From contig DATAIY010000474.1 in NCBI GenBank assembly GCA_036262475.1, forward strand, positions 1 to 31,743: DNA of 31,743 bases, given 5' to 3'. This stretch comes from Solirubrobacterales bacterium (lineage in GTDB: Bacteria; Actinomycetota; Thermoleophilia; Solirubrobacterales; 70-9). The first letter of the stretch is position 1. Every line of letters begins with the position of its first letter. Below the pieces are notes generated by a model. That model did not search any database and was not told where the DNA came from. It saw nothing but the letters and a program-made list of their open reading frames with translations. Both the position numbers and the translations under genes were made by a program. Positions 11,813 through 17,022 of the stretch are shown piece after piece.

Positions 11813-12664
11813 GTGTCCGAAAGCCTCAGAGAACGAGCGCCAATCGGCCTGGAGGTGTCGCCCGAGGCTCCGGAGAGCTACGGGCCGATCCACCCCGGCT
11901 CCGGTCGCCCGCCGTGGCGCAAGCGGTTCGGCCGGCTGCTCGCGCCGCTGGCGCTGCTGGCGGCGAAAGCGAAATCGCTCCTGTTCCTGCTCCCGAACCT
12001 GAAGCTGCTGGCGACCTTTGGCTCGATGGCGGTCTCGATCGCCGCCTACGGGCTGTTCTTCGGCTTCCCCTTCGCGGTCGGCTTCGTCCTGCTGCTGCTC
12101 CTGCACGAGATCGGACACGTGATCCAGATGCGGCGGGAGGGAATCAGGGCGTCGGCGCCGGTCTTCATCCCGTTCCTCGGGGCGGTGATCGCGGCCAAGT
12201 CCCTCGGCAAGGATGCCGCCGCGGAGGCTCGGGTGGGACTCGCGGGCCCGGTCGCCGGGACGATCGCCACGCTGGTCCCGCTGGGGCTGTGGCTCGCGAC
12301 CGGCGATGAATTCTGGCGGGCGCTCGCCTACATCGGGTTCGTACTCAACCTCTTCAACCTGCTGCCCGTGGTCCCGCTTGACGGCGGCCGGGCGATGGCG
12401 GCACTGAGCCCGGTGGTATGGCTGGCGGGCCTGGCGGGGCTCCTCGCTCTGGCGATCGTCTACCCGAGCCCGATCATCGTCCTGGTTCTGATCTTCGGCG
12501 CGGTCGAGAGCTGGCGCCGGTGGAAGGCTCGCGCGACGCTGGAGAGCAAGGCCTATTACGCGGTTCCCACCCGCACCCGGGCGCTGGTCGGCGTCGTCTA
12601 TCTCGGCCTCGCCGCGGCGCTCTCGGTCGGGGTGGCCGAGACCTTCATCTCGCGCAGCCTCTGA
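11813..12664 (+). CDS. Site-2 protease family (M50) membrane metalloprotease
   Basis: HEIGH zinc motif, PFLGAVI, LAGP, NLFNLLPVVPLDGGR and several TM segments. GTG start, preceded 6 nt upstream by GACAAT (possible leaderless -10). Confidence 0.9.
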   Translation: MSESLRERAPIGLEVSPEAPESYGPIHPGSGRPPWRKRFGRLLAPLALLAAKAKSLLFLLPNLKLLATFGSMAVSIAAYGLFFGFPFAVGFVLLLLLHEIGHVIQMRREGIRASAPVFIPFLGAVIAAKSLGKDAAAEARVGLAGPVAGTIATLVPLGLWLATGDEFWRALAYIGFVLNLFNLLPVVPLDGGRAMAALSPVVWLAGLAGLLALAIVYPSPIIVLVLIFGAVESWRRWKARATLESKAYYAVPTRTRALVGVVYLGLAAALSVGVAETFISRSL

Positions 12665-12719
12665 GGGCCGGCCCCGAACGCCGTCGCTACGGCTTCCCGC
12701 GCCGCCGCCCTGCGGCAGC

Positions 12720-12875
12720 GTGACGCCCTTTTCCGCACAGCCGAGACCGGAGTCGACGGCCGCCCGACAGACGGCGCCAGGCGACGAGGAGGGTCTCCGC
12801 GACGAGGTCGCCGGATCGGTGCGACGCTCGAGCGTCGTAGCCGCCGGTGCCTGCGGGGCGCGCGAATCCGAGCAT
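12720..12875 (-). pseudogene. Heavily decayed ECF sigma factor remnant (region 2)
   Basis: DLVAETLLVAWRRL (12768-12809) followed by SRLCGKGRH resembles the ECF region-2 pattern DLVAETFLVAWRR...PWLYGIARH. The flanks are degenerate. Confidence 0.5.
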
Positions 12876-12991
12876 GCCGTGATCCCCCCTCGCCCGCCTC
12901 GCCCCGCCTGGGAGCCGGTCGCGCTCGACGCCGCCCTGCATGGTCGGAGACCGCGAGCGGCGCTGGGGGTCCCTCCCCGACTCGGGTGCGT

Positions 12992-13489
12992 CTAGGTAAA
13001 GATCATCTGGCCGCCCGCCGCGAGGCCGTAGAACTCGCCCACGGTGATCACGTCCTCGACCTGGGGAATGAAGTCCTCGGTGCTCAGGCCGAAGAGATCG
13101 ACCGACGCCTTGCACGCGTAGAGGGCGCCGCCAGAGTCGGCGATCATCTCGACGAACTCGGGGATCGGAGGGATGTCGAGCTTCTCCATCTCCTGCGCCA
13201 ATTTGTGCGTGACCAGTGCCGAGACGCCCGGGACGCCACCGGCCCAGGTGGCGAGGTGCAGGCCCGGGTTGCCGACGGTCGAGACCTTGACGTGCTCGTG
13301 TTTTGCCTTGTTGATGGCGTCAAGGCCGAAGAAGGTGAAGAAGAGATTGGCCTCGATGCCCTCCATCCGGGCACCGTTGGCCATGATCAGGGCCGGATAG
13401 ATGCCCTCCAGCGAGCCCTTGGAGACAATGATCGAGACCTTCTCGATCGGCTCCGGCCTGGCAACCGTGCTCTCGTGTTGTTCGGTCAA
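12992..13489 (-). CDS. dsrE: DsrE/DsrF/DrsH-like (DsrE2/E3-type) sulfurtransferase
   Basis: VSIIVSKGSLEGIYPALIMANGA, ANLFFTFFGL, IPPIPEF, LYACKASVDLF (single Cys), VITVGEFY. SD GGAGG before TTG. Confidence 0.85.
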   Translation of the reverse strand: MTEQHESTVARPEPIEKVSIIVSKGSLEGIYPALIMANGARMEGIEANLFFTFFGLDAINKAKHEHVKVSTVGNPGLHLATWAGGVPGVSALVTHKLAQEMEKLDIPPIPEFVEMIADSGGALYACKASVDLFGLSTEDFIPQVEDVITVGEFYGLAAGGQMIFT

Positions 13490-13503
13490 CGGGTCCTCCC
13501 TGC

Positions 13504-13821
13504 CTAGATGCAGCCGCGCGGCTTGGGGATGCCGGCGATCCTGGCCGCGAGCTTCGCGGGCCCCTTTGGAAATAACTGGTAGAGCTCCTTGATCGGCACG
13601 CCCGAGGCTTTTCCGAGCGTCCGGATCGACGGGGCCGAGCCGCTATCCAGGTAGGTGTCTCGCATGAAGTTGATCACCAGCCAGTGCCGATCGGTGAGCT
13701 GGTCGATGCCGGCCTCGGCGGCAATCTCATCGGCGATCTGCTCGTTCCACTGATCGGGCTGGGCCAGGAAGCCCTCGGGGTCGACCTCGACCGCAGTGCC
13801 GGCGTAGGTGAGAGTGCTCAT
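13504..13821 (-). CDS. tusE: TusE/DsrC/DsvC family sulfur relay protein (single C-terminal Cys)
   Basis: DPEGFL..PDQWNE.IA, LTDRHWLVINFMR, LYQLFPKGPAKLAARIAGIPKPRGCI. ATGA overlap with the sqr stop. Confidence 0.92.
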   Translation of the reverse strand: MSTLTYAGTAVEVDPEGFLAQPDQWNEQIADEIAAEAGIDQLTDRHWLVINFMRDTYLDSGSAPSIRTLGKASGVPIKELYQLFPKGPAKLAARIAGIPKPRGCI

Positions 13822-15080
13822 CGTTTGTCTCCTTGTCCGCTCACGGCCGGCTGCTTGCCGGCCATCGTCATCTGTGCGCCAACGCCGAGGATGTCGCGAC
13901 CCGGCAGAAGCAGGTGCCAGTAAAGGGGCTGGAAGGCGAGCTTGCCGAGGTGGTTTATGCGCGACTCGCGCAGCAACGGAAGCGGTCCGAAGTGGGCCTC
14001 GGGATAGCGACCGGGGAGCGGCTCCACCTCGTAGTTGAAGTCGATCAGCAGCGCCTTGTGGAAGCCGCTCTCGATGAAGCAGTTGACGTGACCGTCGTAG
14101 CTGCCCTCGAGCTCCTCCCCGGCGAGGAAGCGCTCGATGTTGGCGACCAGAGTCTCGCCCTCGAAGTGCGTCGAGGAGCCAGCCTTGGAGGTCGGCAGGC
14201 TGGCGGCGTCGCCGATCGCGAAGACGTTCGGAGCAGCCTTGCTCTGCAACGTGTGGATGTCGACGGGCACGAACCCGAGCTCGTCGCCGAGTCCCGGGGA
14301 TCGGGCGACGAAGGGGGCGCCGCCGTGAAGCGGGATCGTGACCAGCAGGTCAAACGGGATCTCGCGCTCGTCCCAGCTGACCAGTCGCCCGTTCTTCCCG
14401 TCGACCCGCCCGGTTGCGAACTCAGTCTCCAGAGCGATGCCCTTCTGCTCGAACATGCCGCCGAGGTGCGCGGCCGCGACTGGCTTGGTGAAGGCGGCGT
14501 CCAGCGGCGTCGCGTAGGTGATCTCCACGTCTTCGCGCACCCCCCTCTCGCGCAGGAACCAGTCAGCGAGAAAACAGAACTCGAGCGGCGCGACCGGGCA
14601 TTTGATCGGCATGTCGATGAGGTTCACGACCAGACGCCCGCGATCGAAGGAGCGGAGCGCGTCCCGAAGCGCCACCGCGTCCTCGAGCGAGTAGAAGGAG
14701 AAGACGCGCTGACCCCAGCCGGGGGCCCTCAGCCCGTCGGTCTCCTCGTACAGCAGGGAGGCGCCGCTGGCGATCACCAGCACGTCGTAGGCAAGGGTCG
14801 ATCCGTCGCTCAGGTGGATGCTCTCGGCGGCGATCTCGACCCGATCGACCGCACCGAGGCGAAACTCGATCCCCGAGTGCAGCTGCTCGCGGCGCGAGCG
14901 AACGATGCCCTCCGGCTCCTCGAGGCCGAAGGGGACGAACAACAGGCCCGGTTGGTAGACGTGGCGGTCGTCGCGGTCGACGACGACGATCTCGGCCTCG
15001 TCTCCGTAGCGCTTGCGCAGGCGGTTCGCGGTGAGCGTTCCACCGGTCCCCCCTCCGACAATGACGATGCGGTGGCCCAT
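13818..15080 (-). CDS. sqr: Sulfide:quinone oxidoreductase-like FAD-dependent oxidoreductase (type III/SqrC-like)
   Basis: GGGTGG FAD motif, YQPGLLFVPFG, IKCPVAPLEF, VFAIGDA, SKAGS, NCFIESG, and C-terminal amphipathic KLAFQPLYWHLL. Both catalytic-position Cys are present. Confidence 0.82.
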   Translation of the reverse strand: MGHRIVIVGGGTGGTLTANRLRKRYGDEAEIVVVDRDDRHVYQPGLLFVPFGLEEPEGIVRSRREQLHSGIEFRLGAVDRVEIAAESIHLSDGSTLAYDVLVIASGASLLYEETDGLRAPGWGQRVFSFYSLEDAVALRDALRSFDRGRLVVNLIDMPIKCPVAPLEFCFLADWFLRERGVREDVEITYATPLDAAFTKPVAAAHLGGMFEQKGIALETEFATGRVDGKNGRLVSWDEREIPFDLLVTIPLHGGAPFVARSPGLGDELGFVPVDIHTLQSKAAPNVFAIGDAASLPTSKAGSSTHFEGETLVANIERFLAGEELEGSYDGHVNCFIESGFHKALLIDFNYEVEPLPGRYPEAHFGPLPLLRESRINHLGKLAFQPLYWHLLLPGRDILGVGAQMTMAGKQPAVSGQGDKR

Positions 15081-15166
15081 ACACGGGTGATTCTGCGCCT
15101 CGTCATCCATCCACGCATCCGCAGGAAACCGCAGCGCCGGCGGGGCGGGTTACGGAGGGGGCGTCT

Positions 15167-15350
15167 CGCATCGGTCCCGAGATCGACCTCCGCGTCCGGA
15201 TCTGCGCCTGACTTGGCCGCGACGACGAGCGCTGCATAGCTACAGGTCCCGCCGTCGAGCTGCCTCGTCCGAAATCAAGAGGGTCGGCTCCCCTGCCGAC
15301 TACAGGAGCTGAAGATGCCCAACGAATTCCAGCGCTACCGCGTCCTCTGA
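15167..15350 (+). pseudogene. Possible decayed 3' gene remnant
   Basis: GC3-rich pieces across frames: RIGPEIDLRVRICA*LGRDDERCIATGPAVEL / SEIKRVGSPADY / QELKMPNEFQRYRVL*. Family not recognised. Confidence 0.25.
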
Positions 15351-15378
15351 CCACTCGTCCCCGCGATGGCGATGGTGA

Positions 15379-15894
15379 GGGGTCGGCCTCGAGCACGACC
15401 TGATCGTGGTCCTCGGGCTCAGGATCGCCGTTTCCCTGCCAGAGGACCTTCGAGCCGACCTTCCAGTCGGAGTCGAGGCGGGCGCCCCAGTAGCGCTGCG
15501 TGAAGGCGGGATCGATGAGGGCGGCCCAGAGCTCCTCCGGCGTGGTCTTGATGTAGGTGACGTAGACGAATTCGGTGGGCCCCATCTGGTTCTCCCCCAG
15601 TGCGTGTTTGAGGGCGTTCAATGCCGCCGCCCTGGCGACGTCGTACTGGTCGATCCAGCGCTCAACGATCTGACCGATCGGCGCCGCGTTCAGGTGGTGC
15701 AGCTTCTGGCGCCCTCGGCGCCGCGTCGTCACCAGGCCCGCGGCCTCGAGCACCGTCAGGTGCTTGCTGACCCACTGGCGGGCCATCTCGAGCCCCTCGC
15801 AGAGCTCGCCCAAGCTCTGCCCGTTGCTCCGGTTGAGCCGGCCGAGCAGCAGGCGCCTCGACGGGTCGGCGATGGCTTTGAAGACGTCTTTCAG
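15379..15894 (-). pseudogene. ArsR/SmtB HTH-SRPBCC(AHSA1) fusion regulator, truncated at both ends
   Basis: DVFKAIADPSRRLLL...SLGELC...VSKHLTVLEAAGLV, then TEFVYVTYIKTTPEELWAALIDP.FT.RYW. Similarity stops after DQVVLEADP. No start codon before DVFKA. Confidence 0.75.
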
Positions 15895-16098
15895 GGGCTG
15901 GACCTGCTCGCCGATCTGGACGAGCGGCTGGACGGCCACCATCGCCTCCACGCGACGCGTGCCCACCTGCTGGAGATGTCAGGGGGGATGGACGCCGCGA
16001 TCGCCGACTACCGGGTCGCCGCCGATCGCACCAACAGCCTCCCCGAGCAGCATTACCTGACTGCGCAGGCGGCGCGGCTGAACGAGCGCCAGGGCTGA
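15895..16098 (+). pseudogene. 3' fragment of an ECF42-type sigma factor (TPR tail)
   Basis: GLDLLADLDERLDGHHRLHATRAHLLEMSGGMDAAIADYRVAADRTNSLPEQHYLTAQAARL* parallels the C-terminus of the full-length sigma at 18261-19436 (GLAIVDGL...[12 protein letters not shown]...AYRRAL...ERRLLERRL). Confidence 0.7.
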
Positions 16099-16117
16099 TT
16101 CCGGCTTCTGCTGGCAA

Positions 16118-16147
16118 GCTGTCGAATTCGCCGCTTCCCGTTCGTCT
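16118..16147 (+). promoter_or_regulatory. ECF42-type promoter (TGTCGAA-N16-CGTC)
   Basis: GCTGTCGAATTCG-ccgcttcccg-TTCGTCT. Both boxes and the spacing match the element at 17842. Lies 32 nt upstream of ATG 16180. Confidence 0.75.
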
Positions 16148-16179
16148 GAAGGGAGACCGCTCCAGAGGAAGGGTGACCG

Positions 16180-16599
16180 ATGCTCTCCGTCAACAGCTAT
16201 CCCCATGAGTACGTCGAGGAATGCCGCGCGAAGATCGCCCGGCAGACCTCCGCCTACGAGAAGCTGTCCGCCGGGGCGAGCGGCACCCCAGCGGAGTCCG
16301 CGCTGGCGGAGTTCGAACCGCTTTTCTTCAACCACATGGTCCTGGCGCTGGACCATTACTTCCTCCATCGCGCCCGTGGCATGGAGGGCAAGGATGGAAA
16401 TCCTCTCAACGAGGTCCGGGTTCTCTGCGATTCGCTGATGGAGAACGACGGCAAGCTGGCCGCCAACAAGACGATCAAGCTCGACCCCGCCAAGTCGCTG
16501 CTTCAGTACGGGGCCGGCGATGAGATCGCCATCGACGAAGCGAACTTCAACCTCCTGTCGAAGGCCTTCCTCGACGAAATCGAGAGCAAGTACCCCTAG
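16180..16599 (+). CDS. Conserved-looking actinobacterial hypothetical protein
   Basis: 139-aa ORF with SD GAGGAAGG and clean GC3 bias. Motifs FFNHMVLALDHYFLHR, EGKDGNPLNEVRVLC, KTIKL. Confidence 0.85.
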   Translation: MLSVNSYPHEYVEECRAKIARQTSAYEKLSAGASGTPAESALAEFEPLFFNHMVLALDHYFLHRARGMEGKDGNPLNEVRVLCDSLMENDGKLAANKTIKLDPAKSLLQYGAGDEIAIDEANFNLLSKAFLDEIESKYP

Positions 16600-16602
16600 C
16601 AG

Positions 16603-17022
16603 ATGGGTCAGGAGCAGATCAGGCTGGCGCCGATCGGCCGGGTCGAGTCGCAGCTCGACGATCTCCCAGCAGCGCCTCAGCAGGGCGACGAGGGTGCGCC
16701 GTACGCGTGGCTCGTCCTCGAGGCGGAGGTGGCCGGGGGCCTTGGCGGCATTGGGGCCGGCGACGACGTCCTCGTCTTCACCTGGCTCGACCGCGCCCGG
16801 CGCGACCTGCTGGCAGTCCATCCGCGCGGCGACGCGTCGCGACCGCTTCAGGGCGTGTTCGCCAACCGCTCTCCCGACCGGCCCAACCCGATCGGCCTGC
16901 ACCGAGTGAGGGTGGCGCCGGTCGACCGCAACCGGCTGCTGGTCGAAGGCCTCGAGGCGCTGGACGGGACGCCGATCCTCGACCTGGAGCCGGTGCTGAG
17001 CGCCGAGGTCGACGAGCGCTGA
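16603..17022 (+). CDS. trmO: TrmO/TsaA (YaeB N-terminal) SAM-binding domain protein, single domain
   Basis: LAPIGRVES, VLVFTWLDRA, VHPRGD, GVFANRSPDRPNPIGLH, LEALDGTPILDLEP. Confidence 0.8.
   Translation: MGQEQIRLAPIGRVESQLDDLPAAPQQGDEGAPYAWLVLEAEVAGGLGGIGAGDDVLVFTWLDRARRDLLAVHPRGDASRPLQGVFANRSPDRPNPIGLHRVRVAPVDRNRLLVEGLEALDGTPILDLEPVLSAEVDER

Follow-up and report, generated by a model that had tools for sequence, protein, structure and literature searches.

[quoted passage not shown] The three genes probably make up a cassette for sulfide oxidation and sulfur relay, in which the SQR would load sulfane sulfur on Cys104 of the DsrC-like protein, and the DsrE2 protein would serve as the second station. 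Judged from sequence features and tree position, SQR-linked DsrC-like proteins are a distinct subfamily. They may even form a functional branch of their own, the third in the DsrC/TusE family, on which many type III SQRs would rely as dedicated physiological acceptors of sulfur; we make this broader claim tentatively, giving it somewhat less than an even chance.

The preliminary description of this DNA had reported the three ORFs, and the joining of sqr to a TusE/DsrC carrier by an ATGA overlap. All three ORFs were found in place on the minus strand, and the overlap, which we read as translational coupling of sqr and the dsrC-like gene, is seen directly in the sequence (Table 1). The longest sqr ORF spans positions 13818-15110. 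Its first 10 residues are unconserved in the homologue alignment, the conserved core begins at Met11, and the ATG at 15080, which encodes this residue, is the likely sqr start; residues of the SQR are numbered throughout on the long ORF (start at 15110). The dsrE2B-like gene starts with a TTG codon, placed 7 nt past a GGGAGG box and 14 nt past the stop codon of the dsrC-like gene.

Table 1. Features of the SQR locus (positions refer to the window)
Feature	Coordinates	Strand	Evidence
sqr, type III sulfide:quinone reductase	13818..15080	minus	NF049943, PF07992
dsrC-like gene, 105-aa DsrC/TusE/RspA-family sulfur carrier	13504..13821	minus	PF04358, TIGR03342
dsrE2B-like gene, 165-aa DrsE_2-family protein	12992..13489	minus	PF13686
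ATGA overlap, sqr stop codon / dsrC-like start codon	13818..13821	minus	read directly, cgATGAgc
ArsR-type HTH + half AHSA1/SRPBCC domain, upstream neighbour	15103..15966	minus	Pfam HTH_20, AHSA1

A survey of co-occurrence, proposed when the trio was first described, showed that 78 of the 80 loci most similar to it in other genomes (MAGs of Solirubrobacterales, Gaiellales and Acidimicrobiia) have the three genes in the same order. This is far beyond chance, and the trio is, at the sequence level, a conserved unit. It is also present with representatives of SQR clusters at 57, 52 and 50% identity; representatives at 38 and 35% identity are accompanied by the DsrC-like gene only, with no DsrE2. 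In a sample of 401 genomes of Actinomycetota, 23 of the 31 other genomes hosting an SQR above cut-off have a DsrC-family gene on the same strand, at most 1 kb downstream, and the linked pair occurs in about 6% of the sample. None of 6 family relatives carries the cassette; its distribution is patchy, and horizontal acquisition is probable. Thousands of close relatives of the DsrC-like protein populate public metagenomes, and near-identical DNA was found in soil, wetland and sediment runs.

Contigs of two soil metatranscriptome libraries cover positions 12875-14994 with 0-3 differences, and span both gene junctions. There is almost no RNA cover in the flanks of the trio, and two DNA runs cover the whole stretch evenly, but gaps in RNA contig data are by themselves no proof that the flanks are silent. 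The RNA contigs come from one study, the same as the probable source sample, and the runs were found with the trio stretch itself. The trio is probably transcribed as a unit, and appears to be transcribed in soil.

The SQR matches the NCBIfam model of type III SQRs over profile positions 2-406 of 406 (559 bits; cut-off 525). The PF07992 match starts at residue 14, and the GGGTGG Rossmann motif, involved in FAD binding, is at residues 19-24. Cys171 (PIKCP) and Cys344 (HVNCF) align to the two Cys of human SQOR that serve in catalysis (PVKCAG and YTSCP), are invariant in 81 sequences, and correspond to the Cys pair of type III SQRs as named in PMC13047784. A type III-like SQR endowed with both catalytic-position Cys residues, as originally described, is thus supported by profile and alignment alike. 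In a selenoprotein form of the SQR family the HxxU position hosting Sec is that of Cys344 (PMC13188914), which marks Cys344 as the reactive residue. No hydrophobic stretch of transmembrane strength was detected in the protein. A second SQR/FCSD-like gene fragment is present in the host genome, and the SQR of the trio need not, therefore, be the main sulfide oxidase. Some type III relatives are solitary and others reside beside rhodanese and YeeE-type genes, hence SQR in general does not require a DsrC-like carrier.

The carrier exceeds the cut-offs of PF04358 (120 bits vs 24.9) and TIGR03342 (101 bits vs 53.5). Its single Cys, Cys104, is the penultimate residue, lies on the invariant GIPKPRGC arm, and is itself invariant in 79 sequences. 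Among solved structures, its best relatives are DsrC proteins. DsrC, known from Allochromatium vinosum and from the DsrAB-DsrC complexes 2v4j and 2xsj, has the same fold and length, and the local alignment to chain C of 2xsj is nearly full (92 bits). The C-terminal arm with the penultimate Cys, and a sulfur transferase of the DsrE family as a neighbour, are features of the DsrC system too, where DsrEFH loads DsrC. Yet DsrC has a second conserved Cys, CysB, placed 11 residues ahead of the penultimate one, whereas the aligned residue is Ala93 here (alignment to 2xsj, 2v4j and 3or1), the partner is SQR rather than DsrAB, and the protein sits on its own tree branch. All the SQR-linked homologues examined lack CysB; in genomes that carry dsrA, canonical copies show ACKIAGLPKPTGCV. 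The one-Cys layout is shared with E. coli TusE, in which the penultimate Cys is found in PKPVKCI, as opposed to PKPRGCI. However, the two proteins fall on separate branches, TusA and TusBCD were not found here, and the carrier gene is never beside mnmA in the loci examined. In the family tree, a branch with 99/97 support separates 22 SQR-linked sequences, fused domains included, from E. coli TusE, from Cys-less copies and from canonical DsrC with two Cys. The earlier assignment to a TusE/DsrC carrier consequently holds as to the family and the single Cys. A TusE identity fits less well, the protein being nearer to DsrC than to 7syb, a chain named only 'Sulfurtransferase' (38 bits), and reaching 85 bits with the TusE equivalog NF008562 against a cut-off of 191.

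The third protein was anticipated to be a single-Cys DsrE, and it matches PF13686 with 98 bits (cut-off 25). With the DsrE2 equivalog NF047629 it scores 79 bits against a cut-off of 210, and is hence a DrsE_2-family member of the DsrE2B type, not a certified equivalog. Its only Cys, Cys126 (YACKAS), is invariant in 78 sequences, and aligns with the Cys of 2qs7, the best solved relative, and of 3pnx. The former is an archaeal DsrE2B homotrimer (PMC11094781). DsrE2B proteins of Sulfolobales, such as that encoded by the dsrE3A-dsrE2B-tusA cluster of Metallosphaera cuprina (PMC4175335, PMC11094781), share the aligned active-site Cys and are likewise soluble, free of the membrane helices of DsrE2A; no stretch of transmembrane strength was found in the protein under study. 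They are linked to sHdr and TusA, whereas the protein described here is linked to SQR and the DsrC-like protein, and features an additional insert of 35 residues.

SQR and carrier are in places joined in one polypeptide. The proteins P0128 (581 aa) and P0170 (562 aa) consist of an SQR and a C-terminal DsrC-like domain ending PKPxGC(V/I), and either gene is followed by a DrsE_2 gene. The two clusters are 33% identical to each other, and that of P0170 includes RefSeq proteins of cultured Mobiluncus isolates. A further candidate fusion (L093) was discarded, as translation revealed an in-frame stop between both genes.

A complex of SQR, DsrC-like protein and FAD was modelled with a score of 0.78, the best of three controls reaching 0.01. 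The score is the model's own confidence; 58 of 80 solved complexes attain the mark adopted for it, as do 2 of 110 mismatched pairs, a calibration which is only rough for a model built with custom alignments and a riding FAD. At least 82% of the contacts are common to the runs, and the pLDDT of the partner is at least 86. In the model the carrier is placed beside the active-site loop of SQR. The predicted interface comprises, on the SQR side, residues 166-167, just before Cys171, 230-234, 246-247, 261, 276-278 and 306, and, on the carrier side, residues 62-87 and Arg102. Cys104 is outside the confident contacts, which on the arm involve Arg102 only, with an expected error of 6.9 Å. Sequence searches of the PDB retrieved no structure that contains both an SQR and a DsrC-family chain, so it seems unlikely that the model merely reproduces a solved complex.

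A working scheme can be drawn from these data. The type III SQR, on the cytoplasmic membrane face, would oxidise H2S at Cys171/Cys344, beside FAD, as its family membership suggests, and deliver two electrons to the quinone pool. The zero-valent sulfur would be passed on as a persulfide to Cys104 of the flexible C-terminal arm, the carrier docking beside the active-site loop, and no polysulfide would be set free; fusions, synteny, the conserved Cys and the complex model all point to this step. By analogy with the transfers from TusA to DsrE, and from DsrE to DsrC, the DsrE2B-like protein may act through Cys126 as the next relay station, or as a buffer. A direct route from SQR to the TusE Cys and then to DsrE had been proposed at the outset: fusions and complex model provide indirect backing for the handover to Cys104, while we infer the order of the carriers.

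Alternatively, SQR may release polysulfide or sulfane sulfur, like other SQRs, and the small proteins be co-expressed scavengers of sulfane sulfur feeding the dioxygenase, either with no specific docking to SQR, or with DsrE2 as the first acceptor. We regard this scenario as unlikely. It would be in keeping with the existence of type III SQRs devoid of a carrier, with the position of Cys104 in the model, with the view that cst and yrk carriers act downstream of SQR (PMC9918477), and with a statement in PMC9163753 that rhodaneses in sqr-pdo operons limit cellular sulfane sulfur. In turn, scavenging does not readily account for the covalent fusion of SQR and DsrC-like domain in two clusters so distant from each other, for the ATGA coupling, for a complex model exceeding its controls by 0.77, or for the persistence of the pair, with no DsrE2, in distant relatives.

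The host genome is 87% complete and split into 489 contigs, and gene absences are therefore provisional. PDO, rhodanese, TusA, TusBCD, MnmA and DsrAB were not found among the neighbours checked (9.7-19.4 kb), nor, by genome-wide family searches, on the contig of the window. In the 87%-complete genome as a whole, no dsrA (best match 32 bits; cut-off 393), TusA (PF01206), TusBCD, second DsrC or SoxB was found. A second DsrE/TusD-like match on contig C391 involves 41 positions of a 62-aa ORF and was judged spurious; the ORF beside it is presumably a transposase fragment. CCG-domain matches were considered as a sign of sHdr and set aside. The sole HdrB-like protein is encoded after an SdhB-like Fe-S subunit and best matches the SdhE anchor model, at 180 bits far under the 500-bit cut-off; from sequence, a role as SdhE anchor in a type E succinate dehydrogenase seems likelier for it than one in sHdr. 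Another small contig encodes a CstB-like persulfide dioxygenase (PDO) that carries two rhodanese domains (MBL-Rhd-Rhd; 236 bits to 3tp9, 178 bits to 3r2u), so that the usual heterotrophic sulfide sink does not seem to be missing. Further rhodaneses, TauE exporters, MnmA and a MoeB-type rhodanese-ThiF protein (NF006444, 527.6 bits vs 449) are encoded elsewhere in the genome.

The picture given in the preliminary description, that of a trio deprived of its usual sulfur partners, is accordingly correct for the window and not for the genome, which encodes the CstB-like PDO, rhodaneses and MnmA. The genome search suggested there retrieved a PDO-like gene and mnmA, and failed to retrieve dsrA, sHdr, SoxB and tusA; a full Dsr or Tus pathway, envisaged as a different explanation for the three genes, was not found in the 87% of the genome available. 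Neither CstB-like PDO nor mnmA is a conserved neighbour in the 80 related loci. CstB-like proteins occur in 18 of 24 genomes carrying the linked pair, and in 144 of 376 others, kin genomes not being independent; dsrA is absent from all 24 sampled genomes with the linked SQR and DsrC-like genes. Going by gene content, the sulfur would probably end at the CstB-like PDO-rhodanese, to give sulfite or thiosulfate, and TauE-type exporters may take care of removal. The DsrC-like carrier would operate without DsrAB, and without TusA or TusBCD.

The presence of MnmA and of the MoeB-type protein, together with the TusE-like layout of the carrier, might suggest that the cassette supplies sulfur for biosynthesis, i.e. 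for tRNA thiolation by MnmA or for cofactor synthesis, rather than serving detoxification or energy capture. This is improbable, given the score below the TusE cut-off, the branch apart from E. coli TusE, the failure to find TusA and TusBCD and the lack of linkage to mnmA in the 80 loci; a patchy, cassette-like distribution, with the cassette in none of 6 family relatives, is in addition a poor fit to a housekeeping role. A reverse function, in which the flavoprotein, as a reductase linked to quinol or NAD(P)H, would regenerate a persulfidated or oxidised DsrC-like protein and free H2S, is very improbable. In Dsr systems, DsrC is indeed a substrate protein that undergoes redox cycling (PMC8477390), and the Pyr_redox_2 fold includes many disulfide reductases, but the flavoprotein exceeds the type III SQR cut-off and has kept both catalytic Cys. 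Moreover, a carrier with one Cys cannot form the intramolecular trisulfide or disulfide of DsrC. RspA members of the DsrC family are regulatory sulfur-related proteins, and Cys-less copies occur in related genomes, yet a role of the DsrC-like protein as a regulator of sqr expression, like Cys-less RspA-type members with their helix-turn-helix-like core, is scarcely credible, since the PKPxGC arm is conserved throughout, penultimate Cys included, some lineages carry the domain as part of the membrane enzyme, and ATGA coupling implies that the protein is produced in step with SQR.

The closest known system is the sqr-tusA-dsrE2 operon of Methylacidiphilum. In M. fumariolicum SolV the operon MFUM_v2_0219-0221 encodes a type III SQR, a TusA homologue and DsrE2, and is up about 1.7-fold in sulfide-adapted cells oxidising H2S to elemental sulfur (PMC10205796). 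In both cases the type III SQR gene comes first, with the genes of a small sulfur carrier and of a DsrE2-type protein behind it. They differ in the middle gene, which encodes a TusA homologue, by the description given in the paper, in SolV, and a one-Cys PF04358 protein here, in a genome where PF01206 was not found. The cst operon of Staphylococcus aureus and the yrk cluster of Bacillus licheniformis include SQR, PDO/CstB, CstA or YrkE/YrkF/YrkI carriers and TauE (PMC9918477). Heterotrophic sulfide detoxification relies there on SQR and on carriers of the DsrE, TusA and rhodanese type, and a CstB-like PDO and TauE are also encoded by the genome analysed here. Nevertheless, all parts are in one regulated cluster in cst and yrk, whereas the PDO gene is on another contig here, and no DsrC-family member is described among those carriers (PMC9918477), at variance with the DsrC-like carrier of the trio.

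The full-text literature searched, which covers few subscription journals, included no paper on a pairing or fusion of SQR and a DsrC-family protein, no biochemical study of such pairing, and no paper naming the physiological sulfur acceptor of type III SQRs. The initial remark that no biochemistry of the triad is known is in line with this. The idea itself is less isolated than was then held, because SQR operons with small sulfur carriers have been described (PMC10205796, PMC9918477).

Were the SQR-linked proteins dedicated acceptors, the product of SQR would leave bound to a protein, in persulfide form, instead of being set free as polysulfide or as a small-molecule persulfide, and a physiological sulfane-sulfur acceptor, which we found described nowhere, would be named for the type III class. 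Free polysulfide is reactive and toxic, and a dedicated protein acceptor would show how cells oxidise sulfide without freeing reactive sulfur. DsrC-like proteins would also have a function that belongs to neither the Dsr nor the Tus pathway. With fused forms known from cultured Mobiluncus, the carrier idea can be put to a bench test. Tallies of sulfur-cycle genes sometimes include DsrC/TusE genes, for example as phage auxiliary genes (PMC8190135), and could be misled by SQR-linked copies. The frequency in Actinomycetota, the spread in metagenomes and the apparent transcription in soil suggest that common soil actinobacteria may contribute to sulfide turnover.

As to regulation, a promoter and terminator scan of positions 12600-16200 gave nothing above chance, and none of the neighbours checked was recognisable as a regulator of the CstR or SqrR type. 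The ArsR-type gene upstream of sqr is probably decayed. Its AHSA1 match covers profile positions 1-56 of 125 only, no other frame carries on the domain, and its low-complexity tail overlaps the long sqr ORF. ArsR neighbours were considered as candidate persulfide sensors and rejected: the one in the window and four from related loci fit the generic ArsR/SmtB model only, and score 34-57 bits (34 for that in the window) with the BigR model, the cut-off of which is 155. ArsR-type genes occur in 10 of the 80 related loci, are weakly similar (30-41% identity) and vary in position; the upstream gene is, on sequence comparison, no conserved part of the module.

Three co-directional ORFs on the minus strand form a cassette of a type III SQR gene, a dsrC-like gene, whose product we call the carrier, and a DrsE_2-family gene (see table). 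ORF calls confirmed their positions in a preliminary description, which had proposed an sqr-tusE-dsrE operon relaying sulfur from SQR to a TusE cysteine and on to DsrE. The sqr ORF matches NF049943, the NCBIfam type III sulfide:quinone reductase model, over the whole length (559 bits, cut-off 525). Residues 1-13 lie outside the profile match, and the first ten are unconserved among relatives; translation therefore probably starts at the ATG at 15080, where that description had ended the operon. The sqr TGA overlaps the ATG of the dsrC-like gene, as read from the sequence, and 14 nt, with a GGGAGG box within, lie between the stop of the latter and the TTG of the DrsE_2 gene. SQR Cys171 (PIKCP) and Cys344 (HVNCF) align with both catalytic cysteine positions of human SQOR, the single cysteine of the carrier is its penultimate residue, and that of the DsrE-like protein lies in YACKAS; the preliminary description had named two catalytic-position cysteines in SQR, a C-terminal one in the TusE-like protein and a single one in DsrE, and alignment and sequences bear this out.

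Features of the trio and of the gene directly upstream
Feature	Coordinates	Strand	Remarks
ArsR-type HTH + partial AHSA1 gene	15103-15966	minus	directly upstream of sqr
sqr, type III SQR	13818-15110	minus	NF049943; 430-aa ORF, probable start ATG 15080
dsrC-like gene, DsrC/TusE family	13504-13821	minus	PF04358, 120 bits; 105 aa
DrsE_2-family gene	12992-13489	minus	PF13686, 98 bits; 165 aa, TTG start

Among solved structures the carrier is closest to true DsrC proteins of equal length (2xsj, 92 bits; 2v4j, 91 bits), which have their second redox cysteine where the carrier has an alanine. The match to the TusE equivalog model, 85 bits, falls below the cut-off of 191. All SQR-linked DsrC-like copies examined, fused ones included, carry the penultimate cysteine only. 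In a maximum-likelihood tree of 35 sequences, a branch with 99/97 support separates the 22 SQR-linked proteins from canonical two-Cys DsrC of dsrA-bearing actinobacteria, from Cys-less copies and from E. coli TusE. The tree shows a coherent SQR-linked group, whose exact family position is not fixed by so small an outgroup (13 rows, one TusE).

A scan with one genome per species returned at least 580 SQR relatives, and the best 80 were examined for neighbours. They are mostly MAGs labelled Solirubrobacterales, along with Gaiellales, Acidimicrobiia, Microthrixaceae and one labelled delta proteobacterium. The order SQR, DsrC-like, DsrE-like is kept in 78 of these 80 loci; in the other two the DsrC-like match is partial (one locus, L062, ends there) and a DsrE-like match was not found. 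SQR Cys171 and Cys344, carrier Cys104 with the entire GIPKPRGC arm, and DsrE Cys126 are invariant across the related-locus sequences. The SQR was also searched against 1.8 billion cluster representatives, and the contigs of eleven diverse matches were inspected. The full trio accompanies representatives 57, 52 and 50% identical to the SQR, and the DsrC-like gene only is found with two others (38 and 35%); three have neither carrier beside SQR, one contig is too short for neighbours, and the remaining two matches are fusion proteins. Other genes recur at the 80 loci examined: in 32 of them a gene for an MMPL-family RND transporter, a lipid-type exporter, is located upstream of the trio, on the same strand in 28 (e.g. 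L014:2742-4910), and ArsR (17), OsmC (11) and rhodanese-containing (8) genes are found as well; none of these recurrent neighbours adjoins the trio in the window.

In two protein clusters, P0128 (581 aa) and P0170 (562 aa), an N-terminal SQR and a C-terminal DsrC-like domain, ending in PKPRGCV and PKPVGCI respectively, are joined in one protein. Such fusions are a classic sign that the two partners work together physically. A DrsE_2 gene directly follows each fusion gene, and one contig carries two fusion + DsrE2 pairs, 2 kb apart with one gene between. The two fusions are 33% identical. An assembly artefact is ruled out, because the 263 members of the P0170 cluster include RefSeq proteins of Mobiluncus isolates. 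In one metagenomic lineage a fusion and its DsrE2 gene (L121:5001-7245) are embedded in a row of ribosomal protein genes, between those for L5 and S8 and alongside three unnamed genes. P0141, a type III SQR relative (44% identity), has a C-terminal pair of CBS domains in place of the DsrC-like domain.

The main rival explanation is that the carriers merely scavenge sulfane sulfur released by SQR. Docking of the carrier on SQR was modelled by co-folding the two proteins (40-row alignments for each) with FAD. The complex scored 0.78, the best of three controls 0.01. Of 80 solved complexes 58 attain that mark, as do 2 of 110 mismatched pairs; the calibration is a rough one because our own alignments and a ligand were used. 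At least 82% of contacts are common to three runs, with partner pLDDT of at least 86. The predicted interface engages helical core residues 62-87 and arm residue Arg102 of the carrier, and residues 166-167, 230-234, 246-247, 261, 276-278 and 306 of SQR, of which 166-167 come just before Cys171 and 306 is part of the conserved LPTSKAG stretch. Such a placement fits a carrier arm reaching the SQR active site; Cys104 is absent from the confident contacts. Sequence searches with SQR and carrier returned no PDB entry in which the two families had been solved together, so that a high score through memorisation of a solved complex seems unlikely. The model supports the predicted binding of the carrier to SQR.

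To the observed family assignments, conserved cysteines, gene order and fusions a relay by docking can be fitted. SQR would oxidise sulfide and reduce quinone, and the sulfur left on Cys344 would pass to Cys104 of the docked carrier. DsrE2 Cys126 may be the next station, by analogy with Allochromatium, where sulfur moves from TusA to DsrE and from DsrE to DsrC (PMC11094781), and a CstB-like enzyme would be the sink. Of the systems described, the Methylacidiphilum SolV operon comes nearest: it combines a type III SQR with a TusA homologue and DsrE2 and is upregulated in cells adapted to sulfide (PMC10205796). DsrE-, TusA- and rhodanese-type carriers also occur in the cst and yrk clusters of Firmicutes (PMC9918477). 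SQR operons with carriers are thus known, but no account of an SQR paired with, or fused to, a DsrC-family protein came up in full-text literature searches, and we regard the pairing as a variant on known systems.

The linked pair occurs independently of Dsr in the genomes sampled. In an even sample of the phylum (401 genomes), an SQR over the family cut-off was counted in 32 and a DsrC-family gene in 39. A DsrC-family gene follows SQR within 1 kb on the same strand in 23 of the 31 SQR genomes other than that of the window; in six genomes (G160, G242, G047, G133, G030, G316) the gap is 550-820 bp, room for one small gene. One further locus is cut by a contig end. The remaining seven genomes (G188, G035, G135, G079, G121, G050, G279), all of one actinobacterial family, have an in-frame TGA in SQR, the selenoprotein form, in which selenocysteine occupies the Cys344 position (PMC13188914). 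Six of them have dsrA and, away from SQR, a canonical two-Cys DsrC; in the seventh, G050, dsrA was not matched, and a two-Cys DsrC gene lies immediately upstream, on the opposite strand. The selenocysteine form lives in Dsr-bearing organisms and has no downstream DsrC-like gene. While dsrA occurs in 13 of the 401 genomes, it was found in none of the 24 with the linked pair (one with an SQR just under the cut-off included).

The genome of the window (2.5 Mb, 489 contigs) is 87% complete, and gene absences are therefore provisional. In the assembled 87%, a second DsrC, TusA, a credible second DsrE or TusD, dsrA, SoxB, a sulfite-oxidase molybdoenzyme and sHdr were not found. The lone HdrB-like protein, a candidate for sHdr, resembles the SdhE anchor found in type E succinate dehydrogenase. 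It lies on contig C483 (L108) with an SdhB-like Fe-S subunit, the two probably forming that enzyme, and a HipB-HipA toxin-antitoxin pair follows. MnmA, nine rhodanese domains and TauE-type exporters are encoded. A second SQR/FCSD-family gene, on contig C9 (L111:1-1050, minus strand), is cut by the contig end; its product scores 181 bits to the type III model, and the solved structures closest to it are those of flavocytochrome c sulfide dehydrogenases. The 3.3-kb contig C316 (L105:404-1804, minus strand) encodes a 466-aa protein with a metallo-beta-lactamase domain and two rhodanese domains, to judge by which it has the architecture of a CstB-type persulfide dioxygenase. Its best solved relatives are 3tp9, 3r2u and a Burkholderia PDO-rhodanese fusion, and it is likely the persulfide dioxygenase of this genome; a nitroreductase-family gene adjoins it. 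Since this protein is encoded, the usual heterotrophic sulfur sink is there, though unlinked to the trio. CstB-like proteins occur in 163 of the 401 sampled genomes (the unpublished genomes G001, G120 and G318 among those counted), and in 18 of the 24 with the linked pair.

Sequencing runs on soil, wetland and sediment, from 9 studies in all, contain near-identical DNA. The stretch 12875-14994, both gene junctions included, is covered in two soil metatranscriptome libraries by contigs that show 0-3 differences, with almost no RNA contig cover in the 3 kb on either side, while two DNA runs are even over the whole 9 kb. The pattern indicates that the trio is probably transcribed in soil; the evidence consists of contigs rather than reads, both libraries belong to the study that yielded the probable source sample, and the trio stretch itself was used to retrieve the runs.

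The window is G+C-rich, with 0.645-0.676 at 13001-17000 versus mostly 0.69-0.73 in the flanking 1-kb windows. Genes checked between 9.7 and 19.4 kb encode a short-chain dehydrogenase, a GH18 protein, an M50 peptidase, TrmO, a cation-efflux protein, YCII and an ECF sigma factor, and no evident tie to sulfur metabolism was seen among them. In the ArsR-AHSA1 gene, the AHSA1 match stops after the first 56 of 125 profile positions, and a Pro/Ser/Arg/Gly-rich low-complexity tail reaches into the sqr start region. No continuation of the domain was found in other frames beside it, and the gene is probably decayed or frameshifted; among the best 80 related loci it is not conserved beside the trio. None of six sampled genomes from the organism's own family carries the cassette; this, the drop in G+C and the apparent decay of the gene upstream suggest that the trio may have been acquired horizontally. 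Relative to the window, a wetland DNA run has 1-nt deletions at 15272 and 15556.
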